Notes: a model not told the origin generated them from the letters alone. Shown: positions 1 through 62,044, counted from the stretch's first letter. The stretch: DNA of 64,000 nt from a bacterium (GCA_018699495.1 JABIQV010000050.1:3712-67711), one strand, 5' to 3'. Program-made: numbers and translations.

Positions 1-609
1 ATGATTGATTTAAGATACAGAGTCGTTCCTGAACGAAAGGTTCGTAAATATTTGAATAGAGGTATTGTGTGTTGTTTGTTAGTGCCAATGCTATACATGG
101 AAAGCTCAAGATTTATAACGGATCGACTCATTGTTCCTAAACCAGTTCAGTTTTTGGGAGGAGTGGCTCAACATTTTCGACTATTTAGTCCTTATGGTTT
201 GTTTGCGGTAATGACGACAAAACGAAAGGAAGTAGTTATACAGGCGAGTTTAGATGGGGAGACATGGAAAGATTACGAATTTAAGTGGAAACCTGGAGCA
301 GTTAATATAGCTCCTAAATGGGCATTTCCTCATCAACCACGATTGGATTGGCAGTTATGGTTTTCGGCGTTGTCTACAATTGAAAATAATTCGTGGATGT
401 ATCATTATTTTGTAAAACTTATTCAAGGGTCGGAGTCTGTTTTATCGTTAATGGGGCCCAGCCCTTTTGGAAATAAAAAGCCAAACTATATACAAGCACA
501 ATTGTACGATTATACATTTACAGAACTAGACGATATGAAGGGGACTGGGTATTGGTGGAAACGAACGTATGTTGGGCCATATTCTCCTACGCTGCAACTA
601 TCGAAATAA
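1..609 (+). CDS. Lipase maturation factor (LMF1/TMEM112) family protein, C-terminal part; gene probably continues upstream of the window
   Basis: Frame is open from base 1. Contains FSPYGLF, KPG...PHQPRLDWQLWF and YWWKR segments that match the conserved C-terminal region of LMF family proteins. Confidence 0.8.
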   Translation: MIDLRYRVVPERKVRKYLNRGIVCCLLVPMLYMESSRFITDRLIVPKPVQFLGGVAQHFRLFSPYGLFAVMTTKRKEVVIQASLDGETWKDYEFKWKPGAVNIAPKWAFPHQPRLDWQLWFSALSTIENNSWMYHYFVKLIQGSESVLSLMGPSPFGNKKPNYIQAQLYDYTFTELDDMKGTGYWWKRTYVGPYSPTLQLSK

Positions 610-2053: not shown

Positions 2054-3097
2054 CTATTTTTTAACAAAAGGAACAGACGTTACGTTAGCCTTATAAAACT
2101 TTCCACGAATATCAATTTCAAATTCACCCGTTTCAGCAAGTTCTTTCGAAATTATTGCCATGCCAATCGGTTTTCCAAGAGTAGGGGACAATGTTCCAGA
2201 CGTAACTTCTCCGCCACCCTTTATCTTGTAATGAGGTCTAGGGATCATTCTATCTTCCATTTCAAAACCAATCGTTGTTCGAGTTGTTGTGTTACTTAAG
2301 TTAGCTAAGGCGTCTCTACCGATAAAGTTTTTTTCTAATTTAACTACCCATTTGTATCTTGTTTCTAAGGGGGTAATCGTTTCTGATAATTCTTGTCCAT
2401 AAAGAGGAAGTCCCGCTTCGATTCTTAAGGTATCTCTTGCACCAAGGCCACAAGGTTGAACACCACTTTCGATAATCTTTTCCCAAATTTGACTAATTGA
2501 GTCGTTCGGAACAAGTAATTCAAATCCATCTTCACCAGTGTAACCTGTTCGAGATGCAATTACCGTTACGCCGTCTAAAATTTTATTTTCAACAGTAAAT
2601 CTACCAATCGCTTTAAAGTCTATTCCAAAAATAGTTGAAAGTTTTTCAGCAGCATCGGGACCTTGAATCGCAATGAATCCATTTGTTTTATTAAGGTCCG
2701 TAATTGAAATACCGTCTCTCTCAAGACTGTTCATCCAATTGACCATTTTTTCTTTGTTTCCAGCATTTACAACTAGATAAAACGAATGAGGTAATTTTCC
2801 AATCATAATATCGTCTAAAATACCGCCGTTTTCATTAAGAGCCATTGAATAGACCATGTTATTTTTTTTCGTTTTATCTAGGTCATTGCAACTAATTTGT
2901 TGAAGGAACGATTGTGAATTGTCTCCAGTAATTTCAAAACAACCCATATGAGAAATATCAAACATTCCACATGTTTCTCTTACAGCTTGATGTTCTTCTT
3001 TTAAGCCTACATACCATACGGGCATTTTGAATCCAGAAAAAGGGACCATCTTTGCTTTTAATTTTTCGTGATTTGAAAATAATATTGTTTTATTCAT
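2054..3097 (-). CDS. gcvT: Glycine cleavage system T protein (aminomethyltransferase)
   Basis: 347-aa ORF. N-terminus reads H..L.AKMVPFSGF.MPV.Y...EEH.AVR...G.FD.SHMG, followed by TGYTGEDGFE. Its start overlaps the end of hisC by 8 nt. Confidence 0.9.
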   Translation of the reverse strand: MNKTILFSNHEKLKAKMVPFSGFKMPVWYVGLKEEHQAVRETCGMFDISHMGCFEITGDNSQSFLQQISCNDLDKTKKNNMVYSMALNENGGILDDIMIGKLPHSFYLVVNAGNKEKMVNWMNSLERDGISITDLNKTNGFIAIQGPDAAEKLSTIFGIDFKAIGRFTVENKILDGVTVIASRTGYTGEDGFELLVPNDSISQIWEKIIESGVQPCGLGARDTLRIEAGLPLYGQELSETITPLETRYKWVVKLEKNFIGRDALANLSNTTTRTTIGFEMEDRMIPRPHYKIKGGGEVTSGTLSPTLGKPIGMAIISKELAETGEFEIDIRGKFYKANVTSVPFVKK

Positions 3098-4358: not shown

Positions 4359-5456
4359 TTAACGAATCGTTTCCAACTGCTTCCGAATAGAATACTTTCT
4401 AAGCTTCTGTAATGATTTTTCTTCAATTTGTCTGATACGCTCTCGTGTCACTTGATATGTTTTTCCAACTTCGTCTAACGTCCGAGGTCTACCATCATCA
4501 AGTCCAAAACGAAGCTTTATAATCATTTGTTCTCGCTCGTTCAATGTCCCAATAGCCTTATAAATAAGGTCGCGATTTGATTTTTTTACCATCATATAAT
4601 CTGGGCCAGGGATGCTTTTATCTTCAATAAAATCGCCTAGAGAAGCTGTTTCTTCGTCACCAACTGGCATGTCCAGAGAAAGTGGTAATTGAGAATATTG
4701 TTTGACTGCGTCAATTTGTTCTTTGTCCATTTCAGTACGAGCCATCATTTCTTCTTCAGTTGGCTTTCTTCCAAGTTTTTGACTCAATTCTTTGTCTGCA
4801 CGTTTATATTTACAAATGGTCTCTACCATATGAACAGGCACTCGAATGGTTCTGCTATTATCTGCAATTGAACGAGAAATACCCTGTTTTATCCACCATG
4901 TGGCATACGTTGAAAATTTAAATCCTTTTGTATAATCAAATTTTTCTACTGCTCGAATAAGGCCTGCATTTCCTTCTTGAATAAGGTCTAAAAACAAAAG
5001 TCCTTGCCCTATATATCGTTTTGCTATTGAAACAACAAGTCGTAAATTTGCACTAATAAGATGTTGTTTTGCATCCAAGTCGCCTTTTTCAATTCGTTTT
5101 GCTAGGGACACTTCTTCGTCGAAGGATAAAAGTTTAACAAGTCCAATTTCTTTGATATACAGTTTAATTGGGTCTTCGATAGAAGCATTTGCACGTGGCT
5201 TTACTTTTGAAAGTGTTGGTGTCTGTTCTTTTTGGTGTTCATTTTTTTCGTTGATAATATCGACGTCATTATCGTCATCGTCATCAGGCGAAATGTTTAT
5301 TATAGGGTGCTCAATATGAAGTGATTGAGATCGTGAATGGGATAAAACAGAATCTTCAACAGCATGCGTTAGTGCCGGTGTGAATTTAGTGCTTTCGTCT
5401 GTATTTAATTTAGAATGTTTCATTATAATTGTATCTTTCGTTTTGTATTTTTTCAT
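4359..5456 (-). CDS. rpoD: Primary RNA polymerase sigma factor (sigma-70 family), short form without a non-conserved insert
   Basis: Region 1.2 ([11 protein letters not shown]), region 2 ([10 protein letters not shown]...[30 protein letters not shown]), region 3, and region 4 ([20 protein letters not shown]). Acidic N-terminal tract. Confidence 0.9.
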
Positions 5457-7802: not shown

Positions 7803-8062
7803 CTTAATGGACCTTTTTTTAACTGATAAATCCGAACGGATGAAAGAAACGTTTTAATCCCAATAACATTAAATGGATCGTTCCGGGTAGAGAATTTAAA
7901 AAAATCTATATCGGATTTTTAGCCTTTAACCCTCAGAAGCTATTATTACGAGCATAGGTTATCTAAAAAATGACTTAGAATTTTATCCGAATACGGGATC
8001 CTATTGGCAAATTCGAGGGTGACTGTGTTCGTTATTTTATTGGTTTTTTGGTAAAATCATAT

Positions 8063-8088
8063 AAGGAGAAATAATAAGGAGAAATAAT
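8063..8088 (+). repeat. Perfect 13-bp tandem duplication (aaggagaaataat x2) carrying two Shine-Dalgarno copies just upstream of the kinase gene
   Basis: Read directly: 8063-8075 equals 8076-8088. The second AAGGAG lies 8 nt before ATG 8090. Confidence 0.9.
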
Positions 8089-8089
8089 A

Positions 8090-10828
8090 ATGAACATAGG
8101 ACCCATTCAACCATCACATCAACCATCACCGGCATCACCGGCGGGGATCTCCTCGCCATCAACACAGACAAGTCCTCCAGGATATAAACTATCATCCCCT
8201 GACAAAATAAAAGCATTAGCTCACTCATTAAAGGATCTCCAAGATCTCACAGGAAATTGGGCAACTAAAACAAAAAGTAAATTCTTTGGGAGAGGAAAAT
8301 CGTTGAAAGAGCTGGATTATAAAATCAACACTTTTGATAAAGCGATAAAGACTGAAGGCATGACGGAAGATAAAGCAATGCAGCACATTCAGATGTTGAA
8401 GAAGGATGCCGACAGATACTTAAACAGAAATAAGGGGCTTTTTGGAGGATTATTAGGTAAAGATAATGCGGTAAAAACCTTACAAACCCGATTAAATTCC
8501 TACGAAACCAATCATACGACAGCCCATGAAAAAATAGATTCCGTGGATTCGTTTTGCGATAAATTTACGCAGATAGAAGGTCAAGATAAAAATGAAGTGT
8601 TTTATCAAGTACTGGCAAAAGAGTGTGAAAATAGATTTAATGAAGGCCGATTTAATCAATCCTCTCTAGGAGGCGTTTTTGGAGATATGATGAGTATTGC
8701 AGATGCGGAGGTAATGACGTTTCTCGAACCAAAGGCGAATGAGCTCAATACACAAGGATATGACTTAATTAAAGGGAAAATAAGCCCTAAATTTAAAGCC
8801 TTCTTAGAGAGTTTTTCTAAGATAGACCCTTGTGTTAAGGAATTTGTGACTAGAACGAAAGGAACTTCCCGGATGAAAGATCGCTTAACCGTTTGTCCGG
8901 ACGGGTTCGATTTAGTGGGGGATACGGTAGAAGAAGCGAAAACAAATTTTATTCAAAAGCTTAAGGAGTCTTTTTCACCTGAATTTGATAGTTTGGATTT
9001 CAATTCTACAGATGTGTTAACAGCACAGATCAACACCTGTGTAGATAAGCAAGACCACGGGATTTCAAGTCAAAAACGTGAAGCCTTGGAGATCTGTCGG
9101 GACTTTATTAAACCCTCATCTAAACAGAAACAGCTCCGTTATACATTTGATTTAGAAGTAGATGCTTACTTACAATTTAAGAAAGGTAAGATTGGAACAG
9201 AGTCGTTAATTGAGGGCTTATCTGAGATAAAAGATATCGATCAAACAGTGGCCTTGGATTATGTGTTTGGTTATCAAGAACGGGAATATGATTATCAAGA
9301 ACATGGAATGATGGATTCATCATTTAAACCCGCTTTATTACAAGATAAAAAGTGGAAGAAGTTTACAGAGGTCTGGGGACAATTTATAGAAGGAATAAAC
9401 GATCATTCAACGATGGAGCCTTCTGTAAAAGCATATGCGACGGAACGCGCAAAAAAATACCTTGAATCGGCTAAAACAGCACGCGAAAAAGAGATAGGTA
9501 TGAGCAAACTAGAAAAAGAGCAGCAGGTAAAAGATCGAGTCTCCTTAAAAAGAGTCGAACGTTATACCGTTAAAGCACGGTTAACACGATTGGAAAGGTG
9601 TTTTCGAGGAACATCCAATTTTATTGAAAAGACCTTTTTTGCAGATCGATACGCTAAACGAAAAATCATGAAATTAAAAAATACAATTGCGGAATTTGCG
9701 CTTGGGATCGCCAAGAAGGAGAGACCCCCTCGAGCGGATGAGCTGTTAGATGCACTTGACCATATCGAGGACGAAGTAAAGCGATATGGTGAAGAAAATC
9801 CAAAGATAAAAGACTTCTTAGAAGAAGAAGGTCAGAAATTAAAAGAAGAAGTCCGTACGCTCATTGAAAAAGACGGGTATGCCATTAAGATGAGGGAGAT
9901 TACACAAGTTGGAGACAACTCTCATATCACGTTTAATAATGGGGCAGAGCTCGTAATAACGGATCAATTTGCGCAAGGAGGAGAAGGTGTCATTCATCAT
10001 GGCGTTTTGAAGCACGAGGAGAAGGAAGAACCGGTCGTGGTTAAAAAGGTTCTGTTAGGATGGCACGAATACACTATAGGCGTTGATGCGAACAATTCGC
10101 TTCGAGAAGCGATTTCAGCAGCATCGATTGCTCCCCATCCCAATATTTTGCCGATATACTCTTCGAGTATCGTACTGGAAGGTGCAGAAGGGGAAGAAAT
10201 GGATAAACTCATTTTGGTTATGCCTCAAGCAAAAGGAGACGCAGAAAGTCTAGTTAAAGACATGCATAAAGCCCCGTTGGAAGAACGATCTACCCAGGTG
10301 ATCGACTTCGCAAAGCCTGTGTTAAGGGGGCTCGCTCATATGCATCAAGAAGGGCTTGTTCATCGTGACATCAAGCCCGGAAATATTATGATTGATCTGG
10401 ATGGAAAATTACGAATTGCAGATTTCGGAATTACCTGCCGATCAGACGATACGGAGGCGTTAACCTCTCTGGAAGGATCAACGAACTATATGAGTCCAGA
10501 ACACATGACGGCCCATGAAACCAAAAAACAATATTCTAGTAAAGCAGATATTTTTGCATTAGGGGTGATGATGTTTCAGTGCGTAACCGGCGATTCTTTG
10601 TATGAGGCGGCACATCCTATGGCGGACATGAATACAGTAGAGGACTGGGGTATCAAAGCATTTCACAAAACAATTGATTTAGACACAATGAACAGGGTCA
10701 TGAAGCATCCGAAATTAGCAGGGTTAGATATGAAAACAGTTGAAGTGATCAAGCTTTGTCTAAATCCAGACCCAGCTGCTCGATATAGTGCAGACCAATT
10801 ATTAAACATATTAGATTTAACCAGATAA
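8090..10828 (+). CDS. Large protein with a C-terminal Hanks-type Ser/Thr kinase domain and ~600 aa of unassigned N-terminal sequence
   Basis: 912-aa ORF with a strong SD. Kinase motifs: QGGEGV (Gly loop), VVVKKV (Lys), HRDIKPGN, ADFG, SPE. The N-terminus is Pro/Ser-rich (PSHQPSPASPAGISSPSTQTSPPG). I saw no TM segment or PASTA repeats. Confidence 0.85.
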   Translation: MNIGPIQPSHQPSPASPAGISSPSTQTSPPGYKLSSPDKIKALAHSLKDLQDLTGNWATKTKSKFFGRGKSLKELDYKINTFDKAIKTEGMTEDKAMQHIQMLKKDADRYLNRNKGLFGGLLGKDNAVKTLQTRLNSYETNHTTAHEKIDSVDSFCDKFTQIEGQDKNEVFYQVLAKECENRFNEGRFNQSSLGGVFGDMMSIADAEVMTFLEPKANELNTQGYDLIKGKISPKFKAFLESFSKIDPCVKEFVTRTKGTSRMKDRLTVCPDGFDLVGDTVEEAKTNFIQKLKESFSPEFDSLDFNSTDVLTAQINTCVDKQDHGISSQKREALEICRDFIKPSSKQKQLRYTFDLEVDAYLQFKKGKIGTESLIEGLSEIKDIDQTVALDYVFGYQEREYDYQEHGMMDSSFKPALLQDKKWKKFTEVWGQFIEGINDHSTMEPSVKAYATERAKKYLESAKTAREKEIGMSKLEKEQQVKDRVSLKRVERYTVKARLTRLERCFRGTSNFIEKTFFADRYAKRKIMKLKNTIAEFALGIAKKERPPRADELLDALDHIEDEVKRYGEENPKIKDFLEEEGQKLKEEVRTLIEKDGYAIKMREITQVGDNSHITFNNGAELVITDQFAQGGEGVIHHGVLKHEEKEEPVVVKKVLLGWHEYTIGVDANNSLREAISAASIAPHPNILPIYSSSIVLEGAEGEEMDKLILVMPQAKGDAESLVKDMHKAPLEERSTQVIDFAKPVLRGLAHMHQEGLVHRDIKPGNIMIDLDGKLRIADFGITCRSDDTEALTSLEGSTNYMSPEHMTAHETKKQYSSKADIFALGVMMFQCVTGDSLYEAAHPMADMNTVEDWGIKAFHKTIDLDTMNRVMKHPKLAGLDMKTVEVIKLCLNPDPAARYSADQLLNILDLTR

Positions 10829-10845: not shown

Positions 10846-11733
10846 TTAAATCGATTCAAATAGTTGTGCACGACCAGAATCAAGATCACGACCCATCTGT
10901 GTGCAATTGTTTAGAAACCAAGAAACAGCCGATAACTTAATAGGGGAATCATTCATATTCAATGTTTGATTCTCAACATTCACAACAACGGACGTCTTTT
11001 GGATACTATTTTTTTCAGTATACGTTAATGTGTGGACGGATAATTTTGCAGAATAGACAGTGTCAGAGTGCGTACAATATTGATTGGTTAACAAGAGCGT
11101 TTTATTTGCCGAAAGGTTTTGTTGTTTCAATATAGACCCTACGACATCAAATACTTGCTGAAGAGATTCTGTACGTTTTTCTTTTCGACGAAACGTTTTA
11201 AGAACATCCAAAATATGAGTTAAAGAATCGGCGACATGAGAATTCTTATCCGAGGGGACTGATTTCCAACATATATCGGAAATATTATCACATCGAAGGT
11301 CTTGATGATGGACATTGAGAAATTGAAGGATTCGTTCGATAGGGGGGTCGATGGTGTCTTCTAGGTTCTGAGCACCAATCATCAGACGGTGGTGGCATGT
11401 TTTTTCGATCCAGCTATTGAGTCGAAAAAATAAACGCTTTAAATCTTTAGATTGAGCGCGTTTTCCGTTGCATAGAAAAAGGGAATCTTCTAAAGAATAA
11501 TCAAAGAGAAACGTAGTATCTAGATTGGATTCTAACCACACAAAGTGTGTGTCACTAAATTGCATAGCATATAGAATCGATGTGGGTTCTATTTTGTGAG
11601 GAACACTCAATGCCTGAGAAATTTTTTGAGGAAATAATTGGTGTAGAGACGACAGCCACGATACATCATGTTTTTTTAATTGCTGCCATATTTCTTGAGT
11701 TAAAAGTTGATTAATATCAATGGAATTTTTCAT
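10846..11733 (-). CDS. Hypothetical protein (295 aa), no recognisable domain
   Basis: Long uninterrupted ORF that fills the gap between the kinase gene and the binding-protein gene. No motif recognised. Confidence 0.55.
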   Translation of the reverse strand: MKNSIDINQLLTQEIWQQLKKHDVSWLSSLHQLFPQKISQALSVPHKIEPTSILYAMQFSDTHFVWLESNLDTTFLFDYSLEDSLFLCNGKRAQSKDLKRLFFRLNSWIEKTCHHRLMIGAQNLEDTIDPPIERILQFLNVHHQDLRCDNISDICWKSVPSDKNSHVADSLTHILDVLKTFRRKEKRTESLQQVFDVVGSILKQQNLSANKTLLLTNQYCTHSDTVYSAKLSVHTLTYTEKNSIQKTSVVVNVENQTLNMNDSPIKLSAVSWFLNNCTQMGRDLDSGRAQLFESI

Positions 11734-11764
11734 ATGTAGAGAATATTATGGTATCATAAAATTT

Positions 11765-12838
11765 ATGAAAAATCGATTTATTATGATTGTTATTGCGTGC
11801 ATCATGATAGCCCATAATTCGATTGGTTCGATTGAAAATAACCAATTGCCCATTAAGATTGGAATGTCCATGGCATTATCGGGTCCGGCAGGTGATTTAG
11901 GACAGCGACTATTAAAAGGCATTCAACCCGTCATTCAACGCGTCAATCAAGAGGGCGGGGTAAAGGGACGCAAAATTCAACTGATCATAAAAGACGATCA
12001 ATATAAACCAGATCTCACGGTAAAAAATACAATTAAAATGTTAAAACATGATCAAGTGGATCTTTTTTTCTCGTTTGTTGGCACGCCAACAGTGTCCAAA
12101 GTAGCACCGTTATTTTTAAGTTATGATCGTATGCTGTTTTTTCCCTTTACAGGAGCAGAAAACCTACGCTTGTCCCCTTTAGACGGACACATTTATCACA
12201 ATAGACCGAGTTACTGGGTGGAAACGAAAACAATAGTGGATTACTTAGTTACTCAAGGTAAAAAAAAGATTGCTATTTTTTTTCAGCATGATAGTTTTGG
12301 ACAAAATGGTCGGGTTGGGGTTATCAAAACATTAAAAAAATACCAATTAGAACCCACACTATCAGTCAATTATAGGCGGAATCAATTTGATGTCGAACAA
12401 GCTCAAGAAGTAGCGGATATGATCCATGATTCGCAATCCGATGCGGTGATTTGTATTGCGAATCATTCAGCTTCTGCGAAGCTAATCAAAGCTATCCGCG
12501 AAACAAGTCGTATCCCTATTGCCAACGTATCGTTTGCGGATCCTATCGAACTCGTGTCGATGCTTATAGCCGATGACAAATCGTCAGACAAAGAACACTA
12601 TGTATCTCAATTGATACATTCGATTGTCGTTCCATATGACAAGGTTATCCAAACAATCGGACATTTTGATCCTATTAGATATGAAGGATATGCAAACACA
12701 ACATTGTTAACCCAACTATTGGATAAAATATCCTCACCAATTTCACAATGGACACCACAAGATGTGCAGAAACAGTTGAGGCCATCCGATCACTCATTTA
12801 TCATTCACTACCAAGATGGTAGTTGGAAGCCTATCTAG
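11765..12838 (+). CDS. Type-1 periplasmic binding protein (Leu/Ile/Val-binding, ANF-receptor-like), orphan with no ABC partners nearby
   Basis: Signal-like N-terminus MKNRFIMIVIACIMIAHNSIG. IKIGMSMALSGPAGDLGQ...VNQEGGVKGRKIQLIIKDDQYKPD is typical of LivK-like proteins. The tracked ORF starts at 11720; ATG 11765 gives the signal peptide. Confidence 0.8.
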   Translation: MKNRFIMIVIACIMIAHNSIGSIENNQLPIKIGMSMALSGPAGDLGQRLLKGIQPVIQRVNQEGGVKGRKIQLIIKDDQYKPDLTVKNTIKMLKHDQVDLFFSFVGTPTVSKVAPLFLSYDRMLFFPFTGAENLRLSPLDGHIYHNRPSYWVETKTIVDYLVTQGKKKIAIFFQHDSFGQNGRVGVIKTLKKYQLEPTLSVNYRRNQFDVEQAQEVADMIHDSQSDAVICIANHSASAKLIKAIRETSRIPIANVSFADPIELVSMLIADDKSSDKEHYVSQLIHSIVVPYDKVIQTIGHFDPIRYEGYANTTLLTQLLDKISSPISQWTPQDVQKQLRPSDHSFIIHYQDGSWKPI

Positions 12839-14743
12839 ATGAAAAAATCATTAGCCAAACAAATCTATTATAAGGTTTTAGTCATTTTACTGGCGTTATG
12901 CTGTCTGATTTGTACAGTAATCGGTATTTATCTCGATCGCACACTCAGTCAAGATAATATAGCCAAGGCGTCGATGCTAGCCACCACGATTGCAAATAAT
13001 TCTGCTGTGGATATGGTACGTCTGGATATTGCAGAACAGCAGGATTTGCTCAACGCTTATGCGAAAGCGGACGATATAGAGTATATTTACATATTAGATC
13101 AACATAAGGCGTTGCTACTTCATACGTTTACACCGATTCCTCCAGCAGTAATTCTCGAACAAGGGACCCTATTTAACATTAATAAAGAGCCACGAATGAT
13201 TGAGTCACTTCAAGTAATCGAAGTAAATCATCCGATATTACAAGGCGCATTAGGTTGGGTGTTTGTTGGAATGAATAAACGCGTCATTCAAAAACGTATG
13301 ATAGAGGTGATTGTCCAAATATCTGTGATATGTCTTCTATTAGGGCTGGTATCGTTATTGATCATGAAGCGTTTCATACGATCTATAACATTTCCACTAA
13401 ACGAACTCTGTCATATCACCCAAGAAAGCAGAGAAAATCAATTCAAATTAACGTCTGACCATATCCATAAACTGGAAGAATTTCAGAAAGATGGTAGTGA
13501 AATTGGCACATTAAGTAAGGAATATCACAATTTGTATACCGAACTAAAAACGTATATTAAAGAATTATCCGAGCACTTAACAGAACGAGCGACTCTTCAG
13601 AAGGAATTGGCTATTGCTCACAAGATTCAAATGAGTTTACTTATTAAAAAACCGGAAATGAATCATTCAAAGGCACTCACTTTTAGCACGTTTATTAAAA
13701 CAGCCAAGGAAGTCGGCGGCGACTTCTATGATGTGATTGAAAAGAATAAAGTCGTATTCGTTATGATAGGGGATGTGTCTGGGAAAGGCGTCTCAGCGGC
13801 ACTCTTTATGACGGCCGTTCTAACGTCTATTCGAACAGCAATCCAAGAGATGGATGATCCATCCGATATCATAACAAGCGTGAATCAACATATTAGTAAA
13901 GAAAGTTCAACGATGTTTGTTAGTGTATTTTTGGCCGCTATAGAAGTGGAAACAGGTGTAACACAATTTGTAAATGCTGGGCATTTATCCCCTATTTTAT
14001 GGAAGGATCGTCCCGAACAGCTTCCATTAACAGGGGGACAATTAATGGGCATAGATCCGTACTTCTTCTATGAATCCAAAACTGTGATATTGAAAAATAA
14101 TCATCAACTCATTTTGTTTACAGACGGCATAAATGAATCAAGTAATGAAGCAGCTGAATTCGGAGGACAGGAGAGGATCATAGGCTGTTTAGATACGCTC
14201 ACCAAAGACACGACCGAAAAAACATTAAATACGATATTAGAAACCTGCGATAATTTTGCTAGCGAGACGGAATACCATGATGATCGGACTATTGTCGTGA
14301 CCCAATTTAAAAAAACGTCAATCGAATTGCCTAATCCACTCTCTTTTTATATCGAAAATGATATCGAGGAATTAATCAAAGTACAACAGGTCGTTCAGAC
14401 AGTTTGTGACGCGTATTCTTTATCAGAAAACATGGCATATACACTTAATTTAATCATAGAAGAATTAGTGGCTAATACGATTTATCATGGATATACCCAT
14501 CATAAAAAAGAGCATATATTCATTGAGATGGATAGTCAGGACACTCAAATGGTATTGACCATCCACGATACAGGTGTTCCATTTAATCCATTATTATATG
14601 TTCCCGAGGAGACAGCTATCTCTATCCAAGATAAAAGAGCCGGTGGGTTAGGTATAAAATTAATTCAAAAACTCTGTGATTCCATAACCTATAATCGAGA
14701 AGAGGATAAGAATATTGTTCAAATAACAAAGGAGAAGGTATGA
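12839..14743 (+). CDS. Membrane sensor with fused PP2C/SpoIIE phosphatase and RsbW-like HATPase kinase domains (TM, extracytoplasmic loop, TM, HAMP-like, coiled coil, PP2C, HATPase)
   Basis: Two hydrophobic segments (about aa 11-31 and 154-176). PP2C Asp motifs GGDFYD, GDVSGKG, FTDGI, HDDRT. C-terminal N-box EELVANTIYHG and G-boxes HDTGVPF and GGLGIKL. The ATG directly follows the upstream TAG. Confidence 0.85.
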   Translation: MKKSLAKQIYYKVLVILLALCCLICTVIGIYLDRTLSQDNIAKASMLATTIANNSAVDMVRLDIAEQQDLLNAYAKADDIEYIYILDQHKALLLHTFTPIPPAVILEQGTLFNINKEPRMIESLQVIEVNHPILQGALGWVFVGMNKRVIQKRMIEVIVQISVICLLLGLVSLLIMKRFIRSITFPLNELCHITQESRENQFKLTSDHIHKLEEFQKDGSEIGTLSKEYHNLYTELKTYIKELSEHLTERATLQKELAIAHKIQMSLLIKKPEMNHSKALTFSTFIKTAKEVGGDFYDVIEKNKVVFVMIGDVSGKGVSAALFMTAVLTSIRTAIQEMDDPSDIITSVNQHISKESSTMFVSVFLAAIEVETGVTQFVNAGHLSPILWKDRPEQLPLTGGQLMGIDPYFFYESKTVILKNNHQLILFTDGINESSNEAAEFGGQERIIGCLDTLTKDTTEKTLNTILETCDNFASETEYHDDRTIVVTQFKKTSIELPNPLSFYIENDIEELIKVQQVVQTVCDAYSLSENMAYTLNLIIEELVANTIYHGYTHHKKEHIFIEMDSQDTQMVLTIHDTGVPFNPLLYVPEETAISIQDKRAGGLGIKLIQKLCDSITYNREEDKNIVQITKEKV

Positions 14744-15048
14744 CGATTCAAATAGAAAAACAACTCGGGCAATACATGGTGACAATTTCAGGCCGAATAG
14801 ATGCTCAAACGGCGCCAGATATTCAAAAAAAGGTAGATACACTCCTCACAGAAGATCTACCAGTTATTACGTTCCATTTGGGCGATGTGAATTATATTTC
14901 CAGTGCAGGGTTATCGATATTTCTGCGCCTGGCCAAACAAGCAAATATGTTTAATGAGAGGGTGGTGTTAAAAGGCTTGAATGATATGCTCAAATCTCTT
15001 TTTAAGATATCTGGAATTGAACATTTTTTTGACTTTTCAGAACGCTAA
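14740..15048 (+). CDS. STAS-domain anti-sigma-factor antagonist (RsbV/SpoIIAA-like)
   Basis: 102 aa. Contains the DVNYISSAGLSIFL motif with the conserved phosphorylatable Ser. ATGA start/stop overlap with the upstream gene, and the RBS aaggag lies within it. Confidence 0.85.
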   Translation: MTIQIEKQLGQYMVTISGRIDAQTAPDIQKKVDTLLTEDLPVITFHLGDVNYISSAGLSIFLRLAKQANMFNERVVLKGLNDMLKSLFKISGIEHFFDFSER

Positions 15049-15183: not shown

Positions 15184-16761
15184 ATGTTTAGTTCTATTCA
15201 GCCCTATTCCAATTTCACACCATTTTCTCCAGTAAATTGGGATGTTCTCATCCCTGAAAACCATGGGGCCCCTTTTCTTTTATCTAAAGAAGCCATTCAA
15301 AAAATATTTCCCGAACAAAACCTTTTTAATAAGTTAAACATAGTCGGGCAATCGATGGGAACATGCTACGATGAAAATGGTCTATTATCCCAAGCAACCA
15401 TAATCGGACAACTAAAAAAAGATAATGCAACCCACCTGCTCATCCGAATACCCGCACATACGCTATATAAAAATGGTCAATTAGTTCATTCTAACGATAC
15501 GCTAAGCTCAAATTGCCTAACTTTTTCTCACACAAAACTCAGCAAACCTGTACCTCTCACAAAAATACTAGCCGCAGAAAAAACGACCCTAGAAGATTGG
15601 GCGATAGTCCTCACAGCCCCCACACAAGCACTCGCCTCTGTAAGCACAGAAATGCTAAAATATCAGGGACCACCTATAATGATGTACAGAGAAAACGACA
15701 GCCTGATGTGCTGTGTAGGAACAGACCTGCCTCCTCAAACAGGATCAGCTATATCCAGCATAGCCAACTATCCCTCGCAACCTGGCCTAAGCGGAGCGCT
15801 CCTATTGGGTCCTCGTCCAGCAATGCATACAGCCACATCACGAGACCAAAGCACAAAAACCGGCATATTTTTAGATGAATTGCCCCTTCAATTCCAAACA
15901 CAAGAGGTATGGTTCAATACTCCTCCAGAAGTCCCATTAAACCTCCCTCTATGCTACGAGACTATTGCAGTAGAAGAATCTTTGTCATCAGCTGAAAAAG
16001 AACTATACAAACTACTAATCCCAGCAGACCCTCCCTTCTCAACGATAATGACCCAAAATGAAAATGCATTCCTTAAGATCGGTTTAGATGACCTCAAAGA
16101 AGCGATAGGAAAATGCATAGAAAGATTACCTAGTTCTGGTGAATCCAGAACAGAGGTACTGATCGAGAATCTCAAACCAACTATCAAGCGTCCAAATGAG
16201 TCAGAAAACACCCTAAGGTTCGGAACCAGAAACGGAAAAAGCGTGATATTAGAGTGGTTGGGTAAAAAAAAAGGTGGCGCATTAGCCCACATGATTATGT
16301 CCAAATCCACACTGTATAATTTCAAACTCTTATCACTACTCATTAGCTTAATTACAAAACAATCAGTATCACTCCGACACCTTGAAAAAGATGGAGCAAC
16401 TGCCTTAATGATAATCACTACCGACAATCAAGACCATCGCTACCTACTATTACGAGAAAACCCAGATAAAAAACTCGAAATACAAATACTCAAACTAGAG
16501 AAAAAACGCTTCCCAAATAAAACACCTTCTTTTGATCTTGATACAACAGTCACCATTCGAAGAGATACAACCTATAGATACCAATTGGCCTGTAATAAAC
16601 AAGACACAGGAATCAGATTTGATGGAAAAGGAGAGTCTGTCTGCCTAGATCCGAACGAATACGGTGACGATTTTGCTAAACTACTCCAAAAGCCTTCCTA
16701 TAACCCCTCAACTAACCTCTTAGACTTTCTAAAACAATGTTTAATAGAAGGATGTAATTAA
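15184..16761 (+). CDS. Hypothetical protein (525 aa); the N-terminal third has a candidate trypsin-like H/D/S arrangement
   Basis: Long ORF in a C-rich coding strand. QPGLSGALLLG resembles the GxSGxxL nucleophile motif, with upstream His (ATHLLIRIPAH) and Asp (EDWAIVL) candidates. Otherwise unrecognised. Confidence 0.6.
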   Translation: MFSSIQPYSNFTPFSPVNWDVLIPENHGAPFLLSKEAIQKIFPEQNLFNKLNIVGQSMGTCYDENGLLSQATIIGQLKKDNATHLLIRIPAHTLYKNGQLVHSNDTLSSNCLTFSHTKLSKPVPLTKILAAEKTTLEDWAIVLTAPTQALASVSTEMLKYQGPPIMMYRENDSLMCCVGTDLPPQTGSAISSIANYPSQPGLSGALLLGPRPAMHTATSRDQSTKTGIFLDELPLQFQTQEVWFNTPPEVPLNLPLCYETIAVEESLSSAEKELYKLLIPADPPFSTIMTQNENAFLKIGLDDLKEAIGKCIERLPSSGESRTEVLIENLKPTIKRPNESENTLRFGTRNGKSVILEWLGKKKGGALAHMIMSKSTLYNFKLLSLLISLITKQSVSLRHLEKDGATALMIITTDNQDHRYLLLRENPDKKLEIQILKLEKKRFPNKTPSFDLDTTVTIRRDTTYRYQLACNKQDTGIRFDGKGESVCLDPNEYGDDFAKLLQKPSYNPSTNLLDFLKQCLIEGCN

Positions 16762-50163: not shown

Positions 50164-51186
50164 TTAGTTTATCTCCACTATAATTAATGTTTGGTCATCA
50201 GCGATTTCGTCTGTTGCCCCAAATGATTGAACACTTTTGTAAATTAACGTCTCGGCTTCGCTCACTGGCAATAATTTTGTTTCGATAGAAATTTGATGGA
50301 GACGGTCGATTCCAAAAAGCTCGTCAGTTGAATTTTTAGTTTCTAAGAGGCCGTCGGTATATAAAAAGAGCCTGTCTTTTGCTTCAAGTTGCACGTGGCT
50401 TTGCTCATATTCTTCATCTTCATACATTCCTAGAAATAGTCCACCAGTTTCAAGTTCTATAATTTGTTGGTTTCGAATAATGTATGCGGCAGGGTGTCCT
50501 GCTTTTGAGTAAGTTAATAGTTTGGTATCCAAGTTGATACTAACGTAAAACGAGGTGACGTATCGGATATGAGAGTTTTTAATATAGGTGACTAAGTTTT
50601 GGTTTGCTAGTTTCAACACGTCAGATGGTTTCGATGTCGTCTTACTTACTTCATTTATAATTCCTGAGGCCAATGCCATAACTAAGGCAGATGACAGTCC
50701 ATGCCCAGCAACATCTCCAATAACGACTCCTAATACACGGTCGGATTTTTCTTGGTATTGCATAACACCTGGGATACTTGATTTAGAAGTAGAACCGGTC
50801 GTTCCTGAAAGGAAAAAGGAATAAAAATCGCCGCTAACACTGCTTGCAGGAAGGCATTTTTTAGAAATGCATACACCTTCAATGTCTGTGTCGTATACGC
50901 TTAGTAACCCTTGTTGAACACGTTTAGCCATTTTAAGTTCATTATTATAGTCTTCTAATAAAGTATCGAATTGAGCATCTTTAGTGACCGAAATTGTTGG
51001 GTTTTTTAGGGGTGATGGCATCTTTTTATCGTTTAAAAACAGGATTCCAAAACATATTAAGGCAGTTACTATGCTTGTATAAAAATAGAGTAGAGCAGAC
51101 GCATTAAAATAGAGTAAAAAACATTGGCTCAATATGAGAAGCGCCAAAATTAAGTGAAGCCATGATGGTTGTTTATTTTTCGACAT
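50164..51186 (-). CDS. Membrane-anchored PP2C/SpoIIE-family protein phosphatase
   Basis: Two N-terminal hydrophobic segments. PP2C motifs SGDFYSF, GDVAGHGLSSAL, YTDGL and ADDQTLI. Confidence 0.85.
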   Translation of the reverse strand: MSKNKQPSWLHLILALLILSQCFLLYFNASALLYFYTSIVTALICFGILFLNDKKMPSPLKNPTISVTKDAQFDTLLEDYNNELKMAKRVQQGLLSVYDTDIEGVCISKKCLPASSVSGDFYSFFLSGTTGSTSKSSIPGVMQYQEKSDRVLGVVIGDVAGHGLSSALVMALASGIINEVSKTTSKPSDVLKLANQNLVTYIKNSHIRYVTSFYVSINLDTKLLTYSKAGHPAAYIIRNQQIIELETGGLFLGMYEDEEYEQSHVQLEAKDRLFLYTDGLLETKNSTDELFGIDRLHQISIETKLLPVSEAETLIYKSVQSFGATDEIADDQTLIIVEIN

Positions 51187-51418: not shown

Positions 51419-51492
51419 GGCGGCATGGCCAAGTGGTAAGGCATGGGTTTGCAAAACCCTGATCCCCAGTTCGACTCTGGGTGCCGCCTCCA
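51419..51492 (+). tRNA. tRNA-Cys (anticodon GCA), CCA encoded
   Basis: Acceptor GGCGGCA / TGCCGCC, anticodon loop TTGCAAA, T-arm CCCAG TTCGACT CTGGG, discriminator U, 3' CCA. Confidence 0.92.
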
Positions 51493-56813: not shown

Positions 56814-58094
56814 ATGTTAAATTCAATGTTAATATTGGCAGAATCTTCTGATGATTACTCTGTTCCTAAGTTCATTATAGAAAATATGGAAACGTCGTAT
56901 GATGTTTTACGTATAAACGATAAAAATGAGTTTTTTTCAACGTTTTCGACAATGTCTCATAAACTACGAGTTGTGTTGATGAATGAGAACCTTTTTATGG
57001 GTGAGAATACGCAAACCCAGGAAGAAGTTGAACGCCAGATAATTGACGCAATTAAGCAATTGAAGATAATAAATTCTTTACCAGAGATAATTGTTATTTC
57101 CGCGGCTAAAGACATAAAATATGCAGTAAATTGTTTTAAAAATGGGGCCTACGATTTTTTTTCTAATCCCTTGAATCCAGAGAAAATCAAACTTGTCTTA
57201 GAGTCTATTTTAATGAGATCTTCCTATTTAAATAAAATTGAGCAAATGAAAGAGTCTTTGATGTTCAAAAAAGAAGATTTCCAGAAGCGCCAAGAGCTCC
57301 TTCATTCTTTAATTATTAAACGGAGAGCAGAAGGTGAATTATTGAAATCTGATGAAATTATTTCAATATTTTTTTCAAAAAATAGTCGGGGACTGTCTAG
57401 CATAAAAGAACTTGAATCTTATCTAACTATAATGAATGAAAAATATTTAAGTTCTGATAATAAAGAAACAATTTTGGTTGTCGAGGATGATGATATTTTA
57501 CTGGATAATTTGAGACTCTTTTTGTCGGATAAATATAATGTTTTGTTGGCTGAAGATGGAGGTAAAGCAAAAGAATTGATTCGAAATAATTCAATAGATT
57601 TGATTTTACTAGACATTTATTTACCAGATGTTAATGGCGTCGATTTAATTGACGAAATTCAAGGGCAAATAAATGATGCTGAAATCATTGCAATGTCTGC
57701 TTACCAAGAAATTGAAATGGCAGCAGTTATGATGAGGAAAGGCGCTTGTGATTATTTATCAAAACCATTTTATGAAATTGATTTAATGAATACAGTGTCC
57801 AGGGCGCTTCAAAAAAGATATTTAAACTTGGTCGTTCCAGAAATTCAGAAATGTATGCTTGAGAAGAACCTTTCGAAAGAGGAAAAAATTCAATTGTTGA
57901 ACCAGTTAATTAAAGATAAATTAAAAAATTCAGAGCCTATGTATATAAAAGATGTCTATCATTTTTTTCCTGAACTGAAAGAAATTAATATTCCCGAAAC
58001 TGTCCCAATTCCCCAAAGTGTAATAGATTCGGATATTACGTTATTTATTGACAATCTAAGTAAAAATTTAAATAAAATTCCAGACATTAAATAA
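56814..58094 (+). CDS. Tandem-receiver protein: degenerate N-terminal REC plus canonical second REC; no recognised output domain
   Basis: REC2: ILVVEDDD...DLILLDIYLPDVNG...AMSA...YLSKP. REC1 has Asn at the phospho-acceptor position (VVLMNENLF). Confidence 0.7.
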   Translation: MLNSMLILAESSDDYSVPKFIIENMETSYDVLRINDKNEFFSTFSTMSHKLRVVLMNENLFMGENTQTQEEVERQIIDAIKQLKIINSLPEIIVISAAKDIKYAVNCFKNGAYDFFSNPLNPEKIKLVLESILMRSSYLNKIEQMKESLMFKKEDFQKRQELLHSLIIKRRAEGELLKSDEIISIFFSKNSRGLSSIKELESYLTIMNEKYLSSDNKETILVVEDDDILLDNLRLFLSDKYNVLLAEDGGKAKELIRNNSIDLILLDIYLPDVNGVDLIDEIQGQINDAEIIAMSAYQEIEMAAVMMRKGACDYLSKPFYEIDLMNTVSRALQKRYLNLVVPEIQKCMLEKNLSKEEKIQLLNQLIKDKLKNSEPMYIKDVYHFFPELKEINIPETVPIPQSVIDSDITLFIDNLSKNLNKIPDIK

Positions 58095-59844: not shown

Positions 59845-60081
59845 ATGAAAATAAATGGAGCTAGTAATGATCAATCCATTTCTTCTTCAGAAGAAATGGC
59901 CAAAAAAAATTTAGAGGGCGTAAAAGAAATTTTAGCAGGGACGATTAATGGGTTTCTAAAGCAGGCGACAGAAGATACAAAAAAGAAAACAAAGAAACTA
60001 CTCTTAATGGCTGAAGAAGAGTTTGAAAAACTAGGTGATGAAACCGAAGCAGAGAATGAAAGTGAACGTGACGATGAGTAA
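59845..60081 (+). CDS. Small acidic hypothetical protein (78 aa)
   Basis: ORF with upstream aagga. Its stop overlaps the next ATG by 8 nt, suggesting coupling. Confidence 0.4.
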   Translation: MKINGASNDQSISSSEEMAKKNLEGVKEILAGTINGFLKQATEDTKKKTKKLLLMAEEEFEKLGDETEAENESERDDE

Positions 60082-60484
60082 TAATTATATTGACATCAAT
60101 CACTTAAACGAAGCGAGTAAAAAATATCAACGTGTTTTTGAAAAGACAAATTTAGTTAAAGCTGATCCTTTTGGCTTAATTAAAGATGTATTTAATTCTC
60201 TAAATAAAAGTATAGAAAGTATCGTTATTTCGAATTATTCTTCAAGTTTCCATGTTCAACGCTATTATACGTTAAAAATAACTACTCATGAAATGGAATT
60301 GGTTGAAAAAAATGAGACAGTTAAAAACATCATTAACTGTAATTTAGATACCAAAGAAATCACATTAAACCAACAAAAAATGCCTGTTTTTTTCTATAAG
60401 TCTTTTTCGTTACGAATAAAAAAAATTTTTAACGATATTAAATCATTAAAAGCATTGGTTTATGAAGAACATAGAGAGCGGTAA
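60074..60484 (+). CDS. Hypothetical protein (136 aa from ATG 60074)
   Basis: ORF in the operon leading to tlyA. The tracked start at 60035 overlaps the previous ORF more deeply. Confidence 0.45.
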   Translation: MSNNYIDINHLNEASKKYQRVFEKTNLVKADPFGLIKDVFNSLNKSIESIVISNYSSSFHVQRYYTLKITTHEMELVEKNETVKNIINCNLDTKEITLNQQKMPVFFYKSFSLRIKKIFNDIKSLKALVYEEHRER

Positions 60485-61367
60485 CTTTTCTATAGATAAT
60501 TCAGGAAATGACAGAAAGTCCGGATTCAAGAACGAAGGATTAACAGGAAAGAGTGGGAATAAATTTCTCGAAAATATTTCTTCGCCGACTTTTTTCAGTT
60601 CCAGTAAGAATAACCCTAAACAAAAGATTCGAATCGACGAACTAGTTCATAAGCTAAACCCCGAAATAAGTTTAGAGAAATGTAAAAAATTAATTATGGC
60701 CGGTCAAATTCGGTCCGATAGCCAACCTGTGGATAAGCCAGGTACACGTGTGAAGCAATCTGCTTGTGTAGAGATAATCGGGATTAAAAAATACGTTAGC
60801 CGTGCAGGTTACAAACTAGAAGGTGCATGGAAAGAGATTAACTTTTCGATAAAAGGAAAAATTGCTTTAGATATAGGTATTTCAACTGGTGGATTTACAG
60901 ATTTTTTACTACAGAAAAATATTTTTCATGTTATTGGTGTGGATGTTGGTCAGGGAATTACAGACAACAAAATAAGAAATAATGAACGATGTACATTATT
61001 AGAAAAAACAAATGCTAGAAATTTGACCCTAGAGACAGTAAGGCCGATTACTAAACATTTGGGTAGAGAAATTGATCTCGTTTTGATGGATGTTTCATTT
61101 ATAAGTGTATTAAAAATTATTCCGGCTTTAATTAAGTGTGTGTCTAAAACAGCGGAATTTGTCATTATGGTAAAACCACAATTTGAAATAGAAAAGCACA
61201 GAGTTCCTAATGGAGGTGTTTTATCGGCATCCGATTCAGAAGATGTCTTTAAGACTATGCGTCAACGATTTGTTAGTTTTGGATTTGAAATTAAGGGAGA
61301 AGGAAACGCAGGCATAAAGGGAACGAAAGGTAATCAAGAGCGGTTTTATTGGATGGAAATGAAATGA
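60462..61367 (+). CDS. tlyA: TlyA-family rRNA 2'-O-methyltransferase (S4 plus FtsJ-like) with a ~55-aa N-terminal extension
   Basis: S4-like IRIDELV......SLEKCKKLIMAGQI. YVSRAGYKLEGA, ALDIGISTGGFTDFLLQ, DVG and DVSFIS motifs. Confidence 0.85.
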   Translation: MKNIESGNFSIDNSGNDRKSGFKNEGLTGKSGNKFLENISSPTFFSSSKNNPKQKIRIDELVHKLNPEISLEKCKKLIMAGQIRSDSQPVDKPGTRVKQSACVEIIGIKKYVSRAGYKLEGAWKEINFSIKGKIALDIGISTGGFTDFLLQKNIFHVIGVDVGQGITDNKIRNNERCTLLEKTNARNLTLETVRPITKHLGREIDLVLMDVSFISVLKIIPALIKCVSKTAEFVIMVKPQFEIEKHRVPNGGVLSASDSEDVFKTMRQRFVSFGFEIKGEGNAGIKGTKGNQERFYWMEMK

Positions 61368-62044
61368 AATTGATTGTTGTAGGACTCTTTTTTTGGGCTC
61401 AGTCGGTTATTTTTTGTATTAAAAACCTCCCTATTTTTTTTAAACATCCTTATTTGATTTACATAGATTTTTGGCTATTTATTTATTATTTTTTTAATTT
61501 TTCACAAGAAAAACATCTAGTGGAGATGAAACAAGCATGTAATAAAAAAGGATGGTCGTTTAACGATGATACGTCAGACTTTACCTATGGAGAGACGCCA
61601 TATTTTACGATAAGAAATATATTAAAATCTGTATCGCCCACTGCAAATGACACGTTCGTAGACCTAGGATCTGGGAAGGGGAGATGTGTTTTATTTGCAG
61701 CCTGTTATTTCGGGCTTGAGGCCGTTGGCGTGGATATGATTCCTTCGTTCCGGATTTTGTCTTCAAAAGTTGTGAATCGGTTATCTTTGACATCGATAAA
61801 TTTGGTAGAATCAGATTTTGAGGCCATTAATTTTGATAATTATTCGATTATTTATATTTGTGGCACCTGTTTTGGAAAAGAAACGTGGGACATCATTCAT
61901 TCAAAATTGGGGGCTGTGAAGACCGGGACTAGGGTTGTTTCTGTTACGTATTCTCTTCAATCCAGTAACTTACGAATGGTATCCGCTTCGGTGGAGCGGT
62001 TTGAATGGGGACTCGATAAAGTATATATCTATCAATGCGGGTAA
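61364..62044 (+). CDS. Membrane-anchored class I SAM-dependent methyltransferase
   Basis: Two N-terminal hydrophobic segments. SAM motif I FVDLGSGKGRCVL, and later acidic and IIYICG blocks. ATGA overlap with the tlyA stop. Confidence 0.65.
   Translation: MKLIVVGLFFWAQSVIFCIKNLPIFFKHPYLIYIDFWLFIYYFFNFSQEKHLVEMKQACNKKGWSFNDDTSDFTYGETPYFTIRNILKSVSPTANDTFVDLGSGKGRCVLFAACYFGLEAVGVDMIPSFRILSSKVVNRLSLTSINLVESDFEAINFDNYSIIYICGTCFGKETWDIIHSKLGAVKTGTRVVSVTYSLQSSNLRMVSASVERFEWGLDKVYIYQCG

Follow-up and report, generated by a model that had tools for sequence, protein, structure and literature searches.

Several described systems come close to parts of the locus reported here. HsbR of Pseudomonas aeruginosa and CrsR of Shewanella oneidensis unite a receiver (REC) domain, a PP2C phosphatase and a kinase, with the STAS protein (HsbA or CrsA) encoded next to them and the targets encoded elsewhere (PMC6482189). 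Their kinase domain sequesters RpoS, whose gene lies outside their operons, and the HsbR-type STAS protein binds FlgM or HsbD according to its phosphorylation state (PMC6482189). The chlamydial Rsb system consists of a membrane RsbU, whose sensor domain is periplasmic, together with RsbW and RsbV1/2 (PMC11619594, PMC4552016), and is reported to control the primary sigma factor (PMC4552016). In LuxP-LuxQ, TorT-TorS, HptA-HptS, CBP-ChiS and BasB-BasT a binding protein docks on a PAS- or Cache-like external domain of a membrane receptor, and a 2021 review distinguishes four receptor classes for solute-binding proteins, i.e., chemoreceptors, sensor kinases, GGDEF/EAL proteins and Ser/Thr kinases (PMC8050422). 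YfiR is reported to bind and repress YfiN in the periplasm (PMC4887326). Here we describe three adjacent genes in a stretch of 64,000 nucleotides from a bacterium (GCA_018699495.1 JABIQV010000050.1:3712-67711, hereafter the window), which encode a periplasmic binding protein, a membrane sensor with phosphatase and serine kinase domains in one chain, and a STAS protein (Table 1). Following up an original prediction that was made from the DNA sequence alone, we interpret them with moderate confidence as a binding-protein-dependent partner-switching sensor.

The three genes are packed as tightly as the original prediction had described, in a manner that suggests translational coupling. The stop codon of the binding-protein gene (TAG 12836-12838) abuts the ATG of the sensor gene at 12839, the sensor and STAS genes overlap in an ATGA at 14740-14743 (both junctions read directly in the DNA), and the STAS start codon is preceded by a good Shine-Dalgarno sequence, AAAGGAG. 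The binding-protein and sensor open reading frames (ORFs) share one frame with a single TAG between them (12836..12841), which we take for a coincidence. We considered that read-through might fuse the two proteins, but rejected this, since the genes of relatives overlap out of frame and the membrane topology of such a fusion would be wrong. As predicted, the binding protein is an orphan with respect to ATP-binding cassette (ABC) transport: the only ORFs in the 64 kb with both a Walker-A and an LSGGQ motif are SufC and a RecN-like protein, no LivHM-type permease or LivGF-type ATPase gene occurs in the window, and the gene calls of the Joint Genome Institute (JGI) contain no ABC transporter gene within 10 kb of the module.

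The association of binding protein and sensor is conserved far beyond this genome. When one genome was scanned for each species, binding-protein relatives came up at no fewer than 542 loci, and the counts below that are given out of 80 refer to the closest of these. In 78 of the 80 a same-strand ORF follows, starting between -56 and +151 nt from the stop codon of the binding-protein gene, and 68 of these 78 downstream ORFs match Pfam sCache_3_2 (E ≤ 1e-3). A family-specific hidden Markov model (HMM), built from the N-terminal 180 residues of the window sensor family, matches at 76 of the 80 loci, at 73 of them immediately downstream of the binding-protein gene. An ABC ATPase signature (an ORF with Walker-A and LSGGQ motifs) is found within 7 kb at a single one of the 80 loci. 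Looking from the sensor side, five relatives with 26-37% identity (P0002, P0005, P0006, P0012, P0058) were compared, and in all five the sensor gene directly follows a Peripla_BP_6 gene, with which it shares a few bases. The whole trio of binding protein, sensor and STAS protein recurs in divergent lineages as well. Because this subfamily of binding proteins is rarely located near ABC ATPases and nearly always next to a sensor module, the window gene is not a stray liv gene; neither a regular home in liv-type operons nor an adjacency unique to this genome, which the original prediction had named as grounds for abandoning it, was encountered. Judging from gene order, the subfamily is dedicated to its sCache_3_2 membrane partner, and the proposal that the binding protein is the partner of the sensor gains strong genetic support from both sides of the comparison.

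The binding protein itself conforms to the LivK-like type-1 protein with signal peptide that had been proposed, with its Peripla_BP_6 match and a signal-peptide-like N-terminus (hydrophobic stretch at residues 5-23 by hydropathy). The Pfam match covers profile positions 1-212 only, i.e., the first lobe and a half. A degenerate protein was nevertheless rejected, as the AlphaFold2 model has a complete two-lobe type-I (Venus-flytrap) fold (predicted local distance difference test score, pLDDT, 93.3), for which Foldseek returned 4KV7 from Rhodopirellula (TM-score 0.78) and 3LOP from Ralstonia as best matches; a profile search of the PDB retrieved 4KV7 at 1.2e-65. Two loops that line the cleft in the way known from LivJ-type proteins, GTPT and FPFTGA, do not vary between phyla, and the clade of the window protein is without two C-terminal segments found in most of the subfamily. 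We presume that the protein acts as an extracytoplasmic ligand receptor or co-sensor.

The membrane sensor is of the dimer type. Its two transmembrane (TM) segments, placed by hydropathy where the original prediction had seen them, bracket about 120 external residues, and Lys/Arg residues flank both segments on the cytoplasmic side. What had been called an external loop was correct in location and size but is more than a loop, namely a sensor domain of sCache_3_2/YfiN-like type, in which the motifs of the family, HTFxPxxP and PILxGxxGxVxVGM, are present. The N-terminal module gives weak but full-length matches to the NCBIfam models DgcN/YfiN (1.2e-9, residues 7-245) and histidine kinase near a YfiR-like protein (HK_near_YfiR_like), and a weak match to CHASE8. 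TM2 is followed by a helical linker with a HAMP-like segment, FPLNEL...SEIGTLSKEYHNL, in which the Pro and the (D/S)EIGxL signature of HAMP can be recognized by eye, and with a coiled-coil lead-in, ELAIAHKIQMSLL, to the phosphatase.

These matches raise the possibility that the binding protein works like YfiR, as a ligand-independent (or redox- or stress-sensitive) repressor or co-factor which holds the sensor in one state, the signal being its removal or change. The order of the genes, periplasmic partner and then sensor, is that of yfiR-yfiN, the periplasmic repression of YfiN by YfiR has been reported (PMC4887326), and the loss of the two C-terminal segments in the window clade might also fit a protein of this kind. 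However, the model of the binding protein is a confident and complete Venus-flytrap, the invariance of the two cleft loops fits a conserved small ligand, and no homologue of YfiR or YfiB is encoded at the window locus. We therefore consider a YfiR-like role unlikely.

The cytoplasmic half of the sensor and the STAS protein supply the three components of a partner switch, i.e., a PP2C domain with its Asp motifs, a HATPase_c_2 domain with ATP boxes and a STAS protein with a phosphorylatable Ser, and Pfam assigned Peripla_BP_6, SpoIIE, HATPase_c_2 and STAS as originally claimed. The phosphatase domain is complete: the motifs GGDFYD (293), GDVSGKG (311), TDG (428) and DDRT (481), all four of them metal-binding, align with those of Rv1364c (PDB 3KE6), which is the only PDB sequence match of the sensor (3.4e-9). 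The N-box (E..N) and the G2 box (GGLG) of the kinase align with SpoIIAB. In the STAS protein, which has no TM segment by hydropathy, S55 (codon 14902-14904, motif YISSAGL) aligns with the phospho-Ser of RsbV (6M36_B) and of SpoIIAA, so that the phosphorylatable residue is kept as proposed, and the YISSxGL motif is preserved in the STAS proteins of related loci. Fusions of PP2C and kinase are in themselves very frequent: over 4,000 matches were obtained, among them dCache-HAMP and REC forms. Taken together, comparative sequence analysis points firmly to the architecture described, to intact catalytic and phospho-acceptor residues, to translational coupling and to a very strong evolutionary linkage between binding protein and sensor.

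Table 1. Features of the binding-protein/sensor/STAS module and of neighboring genes in the window.
Feature	Coordinates	Strand	Size or residues	Description	Basis
Sigma-70-family factor	4359..5456	-	365 aa	RpoD-like; regions 1.2, 2, 3, 4	Best NCBIfam match RpoD, below model cut-off
Ser/Thr kinase	8090..10828	+	912 aa	Eukaryote-like; kinase domain at residues 630-906	Pfam Pkinase 6.7e-40
X295	10846..11733	-	295 aa	Conserved divergent gene; cytoplasmic, no TM segment	BLASTP, HMMER
Binding protein	11765..12838	+	357 aa	Orphan periplasmic type-I binding protein	ORF call; Pfam Peripla_BP_6 4.7e-36
Membrane sensor	12839..14743	+	634 aa	TM1, sCache_3_2-like external domain, TM2, helical linker, PP2C, RsbW-type Ser kinase	ORF call
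TM1	12875-12931	+	residues 13-31		Hydropathy
External (periplasmic) sensor domain	12935..13294	+	residues 33-152		Weak sCache_3_2 match, NCBIfam, family HMM
TM2	13307-13363	+	residues 157-175		Hydropathy
Cytoplasmic helical linker	13364..13624	+	residues 176-262		Motifs by eye
PP2C/SpoIIE phosphatase domain	13715..14308	+	residues 305-490 (Pfam match)		Pfam SpoIIE 4.5e-40
HATPase_c_2 serine kinase domain	14354..14731	+	residues 506-631	RsbW/SpoIIAB-type; potential anti-sigma domain	Pfam 1.5e-23
STAS protein	14740..15048	+	102 aa	Single-domain	ORF call; Pfam STAS 4.7e-14; NCBIfam ant_ant_sig (anti-sigma factor antagonist) 1.7e-19

Across the related loci the same input pair is combined with many different outputs. 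Among the 36 long sensor partners we found HAMP in 28, at the position equivalent to the linker of the window sensor (as also in L092), PAS in 21, HisKA/HATPase_c in 12, SpoIIE in seven (three of them with a fused HATPase_c_2), GGDEF/EAL in five, Sigma54_activat in three and MCPsignal in one. A PP2C output was seen at eight of the 80 loci. PP2C versions with STAS genes and fused or separate RsbW-like genes nearby (L011, L014, L015, L017, L018, L019, L022, L045, and also L008) come from genomes of UBP8, Thermodesulfobacteriota, "delta proteobacteria," Lysobacterales and Vulcanimicrobiota. The mixed outputs on one input pair fit a published idea in which a common coiled-coil linker allows N-terminal sensor modules to be swapped among PPM phosphatases, histidine kinases and diguanylate cyclases (PMC12143880). 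Binding protein and sCache module constitute a swappable input cassette which serves many outputs across phyla.

Several observations weigh against our interpretation of the window module or limit its reach. The two best structural matches of the binding protein, 4KV7 and 3LOP, are structural-genomics entries for which we found no functional paper. The sCache_3_2 (PF17203) match of the window sensor is weak (E 0.0096 for the whole sensor, 6e-4 for the domain alone) and falls, at 16.4-20.3 bits, under the gathering cut-off of 28.4. The HAMP-like nature of the linker, as stated in the original prediction, was not borne out by Pfam, since residues 169-264 gave no HAMP match even at E ≤ 10, though relatives have HAMP in this place. 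Regarding the RsbW-type HATPase, the N-box and G2 held up in the alignment to SpoIIAB but the G1 box is a variant, DTGVP instead of DxGxG with the second Gly replaced by Pro (some close relatives have DDA), and ATP binding is therefore putative. Docking of the binding protein on the sensor, as well as ligand and output of the module, is inferred. Finally, 42 of the 80 partners are stand-alone TM-sCache_3_2-TM proteins of about 250 aa without an output domain (e.g., L020 at 6905-10383, L024, L034, L039, L053, L059, L072 and about 35 others), and in seven of the eight tested the next gene encodes a transporter of the major facilitator superfamily (MFS_1, about 440 aa), which means that the pair may serve transport besides signaling.

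Such trios with an MFS gene occur in Binatia, Latescibacterota, Bryobacterales, Gemmatimonadota and alpha- and gamma-proteobacteria, and they may represent MFS transporters that depend on, or are regulated by, a binding protein. Taken to its end, this association would make the pair mainly an accessory of transport: either the binding protein hands a solute to a membrane partner, the window sensor reporting no more than transporter-like substrate flux, or it belongs to an unlinked transporter and has only its expression in common with the sensor. The abundance of partners without output domain and the frequent MFS neighbor speak for it, but no gene of MFS, ABC, tripartite ATP-independent periplasmic (TRAP) or tripartite tricarboxylate (TTT) type was found adjoining the window module, the partner carries a classical signaling output in 36 of the 80 loci, and the tight overlap of the binding-protein and sensor genes is conserved. 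We regard this explanation as very unlikely for the window module.

For the favored binding-protein-dependent switch the following sequence of events is plausible. The binding protein, liganded or not, would dock on the external domain of the sensor, for which LuxP-LuxQ, TorT-TorS, BasB-BasT and YfiR-YfiN offer precedents. The signal would then pass through TM2 and the HAMP-like/coiled-coil linker to a PP2C dimer, as in phosphatases of the RsbU family, and phosphatase activity would be switched against the activity of the fused HATPase_c_2 kinase. The resulting phosphorylation state of S55 would select the binding partner of the STAS protein. At the output end, either the fused kinase might double as anti-sigma factor for a group-1 or group-2 sigma-70 factor from outside the operon, comparable to HsbR/CrsR and RpoS, the RpoD-like factor of the window being a candidate; or the STAS protein might act on the co-localized X295 protein, on the neighboring Ser/Thr kinase, or on both, in the lineage related to Marinamargulisbacteria/UBP8.

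The first of these outputs would amount to conventional sigma control, with HATPase_c_2 sequestering a group-1/2 sigma-70 factor and unphosphorylated STAS protein setting it free. The original prediction had argued from the lack of a sigma factor gene, and this statement has to be corrected, for a gene of the sigma-70 family lies 6.3 kb upstream of the module and its product, RpoD-like with regions 1.2-4, could be a target. The argument was weak in any case because HsbR and CrsR sequester an RpoS encoded elsewhere, their kinase domains binding it from outside the operon (PMC6482189), and an operon without sigma gene need therefore not have a sigma-less output. The chlamydial Rsb proteins are likewise reported to act on a primary sigma factor (PMC4552016). 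On the other hand, in L001-L007, L091 and L092 the module is found without a syntenic counterpart of the sigma gene, which led us to reject it as a part of the module and to keep it as candidate target only; the strictly conserved neighbors are instead X295 and, often, the Ser/Thr kinase; and a membrane-tethered anti-sigma factor for a housekeeping-type sigma would be unusual. Sigma control is thus possible, but in our view doubtful.

X295 is encoded divergently from the binding protein and has no match in Pfam or NCBIfam. It is homologous to ORFs in the same position in L001 (2e-23) and L002 (5e-10) by BLASTP, and an exhaustive HMMER search of 1.84 billion proteins revealed only 15 representatives of the family; a metagenome scan with a seven-sequence X295 alignment yielded three loci. 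X295 stands back-to-back with the binding-protein gene in all ten loci with readable context (window, L001, L002, L003, L017, L091, L092, L094, L095, L096), and given this strict linkage it is the most specific candidate partner in the lineage. The two start codons are 31 bp apart in the window (11734..11764), and 20-60 bp in the six gene-called loci (window, L001, L002, L003, L091, L092). With a spacing of 31 bp each promoter must lie inside the coding region of the other gene, which implies that the divergent transcription of X295 and binding protein is coupled or mutually interfering. In L002, L003 and L017 X295 and the STAS gene belong to a single co-directional run, in which they are direct neighbors or are joined through a gene for a Ser/Thr kinase. 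Its AlphaFold2 model (pLDDT 67.5) displays two repeats, each of about five strands and a helix, and Foldseek found no meaningful match to it in the PDB (best E 0.04, TM-score <0.2). We consider X295 a candidate for a lineage-specific component or output of the module.

Two further ORFs are related to X295. In L011 (UBP8_UBA817) a 100-aa ORF beside the binding-protein gene (2517-2819, minus strand) aligns with the X295 family over its N-terminal 73 positions only, and is perhaps a remnant or a copy that was mis-assembled; no gene of this kind is present in the related locus L006. The window itself holds a half-size paralogue of 149 aa (60035..60484, plus strand), with an N-terminal YIDINHL motif and one repeat (HMM positions 166-293, E 1.3e-15), which overlaps the start of a gene for a TlyA-like S4+FtsJ methyltransferase (60462..61367) that is followed by a DOT1-like methyltransferase (61349..62044).

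The Ser/Thr kinase next to X295 possibly belongs to the module as well. A kinase of this type is adjacent in four of the ten X295 loci (window, L003:2564-4024, L017:1309-5649 and L091:6867-10547), and in L003 and L017 the genes for kinase, X295 and STAS protein form a single co-directional run. No match was obtained for the first ~620 residues of the window kinase. In a search with PADLOC the module was without match to any defense system, the kinase showing generic kinase-domain similarity only.

A more far-reaching proposal, which we put forward tentatively and rate as less probable than not, sees in the Peripla_BP_6/sCache_3_2 pair an undescribed, phylum-spanning input device (at least 542 loci) which plugs into histidine kinases, GGDEF/EAL proteins, sigma-54 activators, methyl-accepting chemotaxis proteins, PP2C phosphatases and MFS transporters. 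What it would drive in the Marinamargulisbacteria-related lineage is a sigma-independent switch with X295 as output and with the Ser/Thr kinase cross-wired to the STAS protein.

The lineage of the window appears to be related to Candidatus Marinamargulisbacteria/UBP8. The deposited protein of the window is MBT6120370.1, X295 relatives are annotated as Candidatus Marinamargulisbacteria, and the nearest species-representative locus, with 40% identity in the binding protein, is that of UBP8_UBA817; UBA6595, in NCBI naming bacterium UBP8_UBA6595, has been treated as Marinamargulisbacteria (PMC6349859). Genes for an LpxB-like protein and a TonB receptor nearby indicate a diderm envelope and hence the existence of a periplasm. 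Domains of eukaryotic type are encoded in the window, i.e., LMF1_C (lipase maturation factor C-terminal, 1.8e-46) at 1..609 on the plus strand and the DOT1-like methyltransferase, likewise on the plus strand, and ankyrin repeats abound on related contigs (L006), which hints at a host-associated lifestyle.

Among the other genes of the window, a second, soluble PP2C/SpoIIE protein of 340 aa (50164..51186, minus strand; SpoIIE 5.4e-47), whose N-terminal 148 residues are without family match and whose gene adjoins that for FdhD, could act on the same STAS protein. The 525-aa ORF directly 3' of the STAS gene (15184..16761, plus strand) has no significant family match and no homologue in the related loci and lies probably outside the module. 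A 426-aa protein (56814..58094, plus strand) contains a REC domain at residues 220-328, the remainder being without assignment. The scan for promoters and terminators between 10700 and 15400 was uninformative, with fewer promoter-like sites than in shuffled sequences and no convincing terminator, and an Rfam scan of the window returned only a tRNA (51419-51489).

The inputs of partner switches are usually cytoplasmic or of the stressosome type. A binding protein, if our interpretation is true, would give the PP2C/kinase switch a defined, ligand-addressable input and would add a fifth class of receptors for solute-binding proteins. Identification of a single ligand or docking mode would annotate hundreds of orphan "Leu/Ile/Val-binding proteins" together with their sensors, and ligands could be screened with the cassette grafted onto a reporter kinase. 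The X295 family and its kinase neighbor offer a lead to a STAS output other than sigma in a poorly known phylum.

Compared with the described systems, the binding protein shares fold and Pfam family with the LivJ/LivK-type substrate-binding proteins of ABC transporters but is encoded outside an ABC operon, its whole subfamily being linked to sCache_3_2 membrane proteins. With LuxP-LuxQ, BasB-BasT and the other binding-protein-assisted receptors it has in common the position of its gene next to that of a membrane receptor, and a use that is independent of transport or dual, BasB also being a Peripla_BP_6 protein; a PP2C phosphatase or partner-switch output is absent from the four receptor classes of the review. 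The TM-external-TM-linker module of the sensor is homologous to that of YfiN and the gene for the periplasmic partner likewise lies directly upstream, but in contrast to YfiBNR this partner is a Peripla_BP_6 Venus-flytrap, there is no YfiB, and the output is PP2C and kinase instead of GGDEF. The chlamydial Rsb system resembles the window module in its membrane PP2C, in an extracytoplasmic sensor that drives STAS phosphorylation and in an operon without dedicated alternative sigma factor, whereas its kinase is a separate protein. The sensor domain of chlamydial RsbU probably binds metabolites directly, and is not known to have a binding-protein partner.

Among fused phosphatase-kinases, Rv1364c of Mycobacterium tuberculosis (3KE6), the precedent cited in the original prediction, is a valid one in that it joins PP2C and anti-sigma kinase with alignable motifs, but it is cytoplasmic and regulated by PAS, its STAS domain is fused as well, and it has no binding protein. 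HsbR/CrsR are the better architectural comparator: they too combine PP2C and RsbW-type kinase in one chain with an adjacent STAS gene, and REC-SpoIIE-HATPase_c_2 proteins (P0060, P0076, P0098) are ~30-32% identical to the cytoplasmic half of the window sensor. They differ at the input, where in HsbR/CrsR a phosphorelay acts through a REC domain in the cytoplasm, while the window sensor, with no Pfam match to REC (Response_reg), has a two-TM sCache_3_2-like domain and a binding protein. In line with the original prediction we found no published binding-protein-gated PP2C partner switch, in a search that was made without most subscription journals, so that a prior description is possible, and no mention of Peripla_BP_6 together with SpoIIE in the literature searched. 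Fused PP2C-kinase proteins are common, and binding-protein-assisted receptors are already familiar from other systems.

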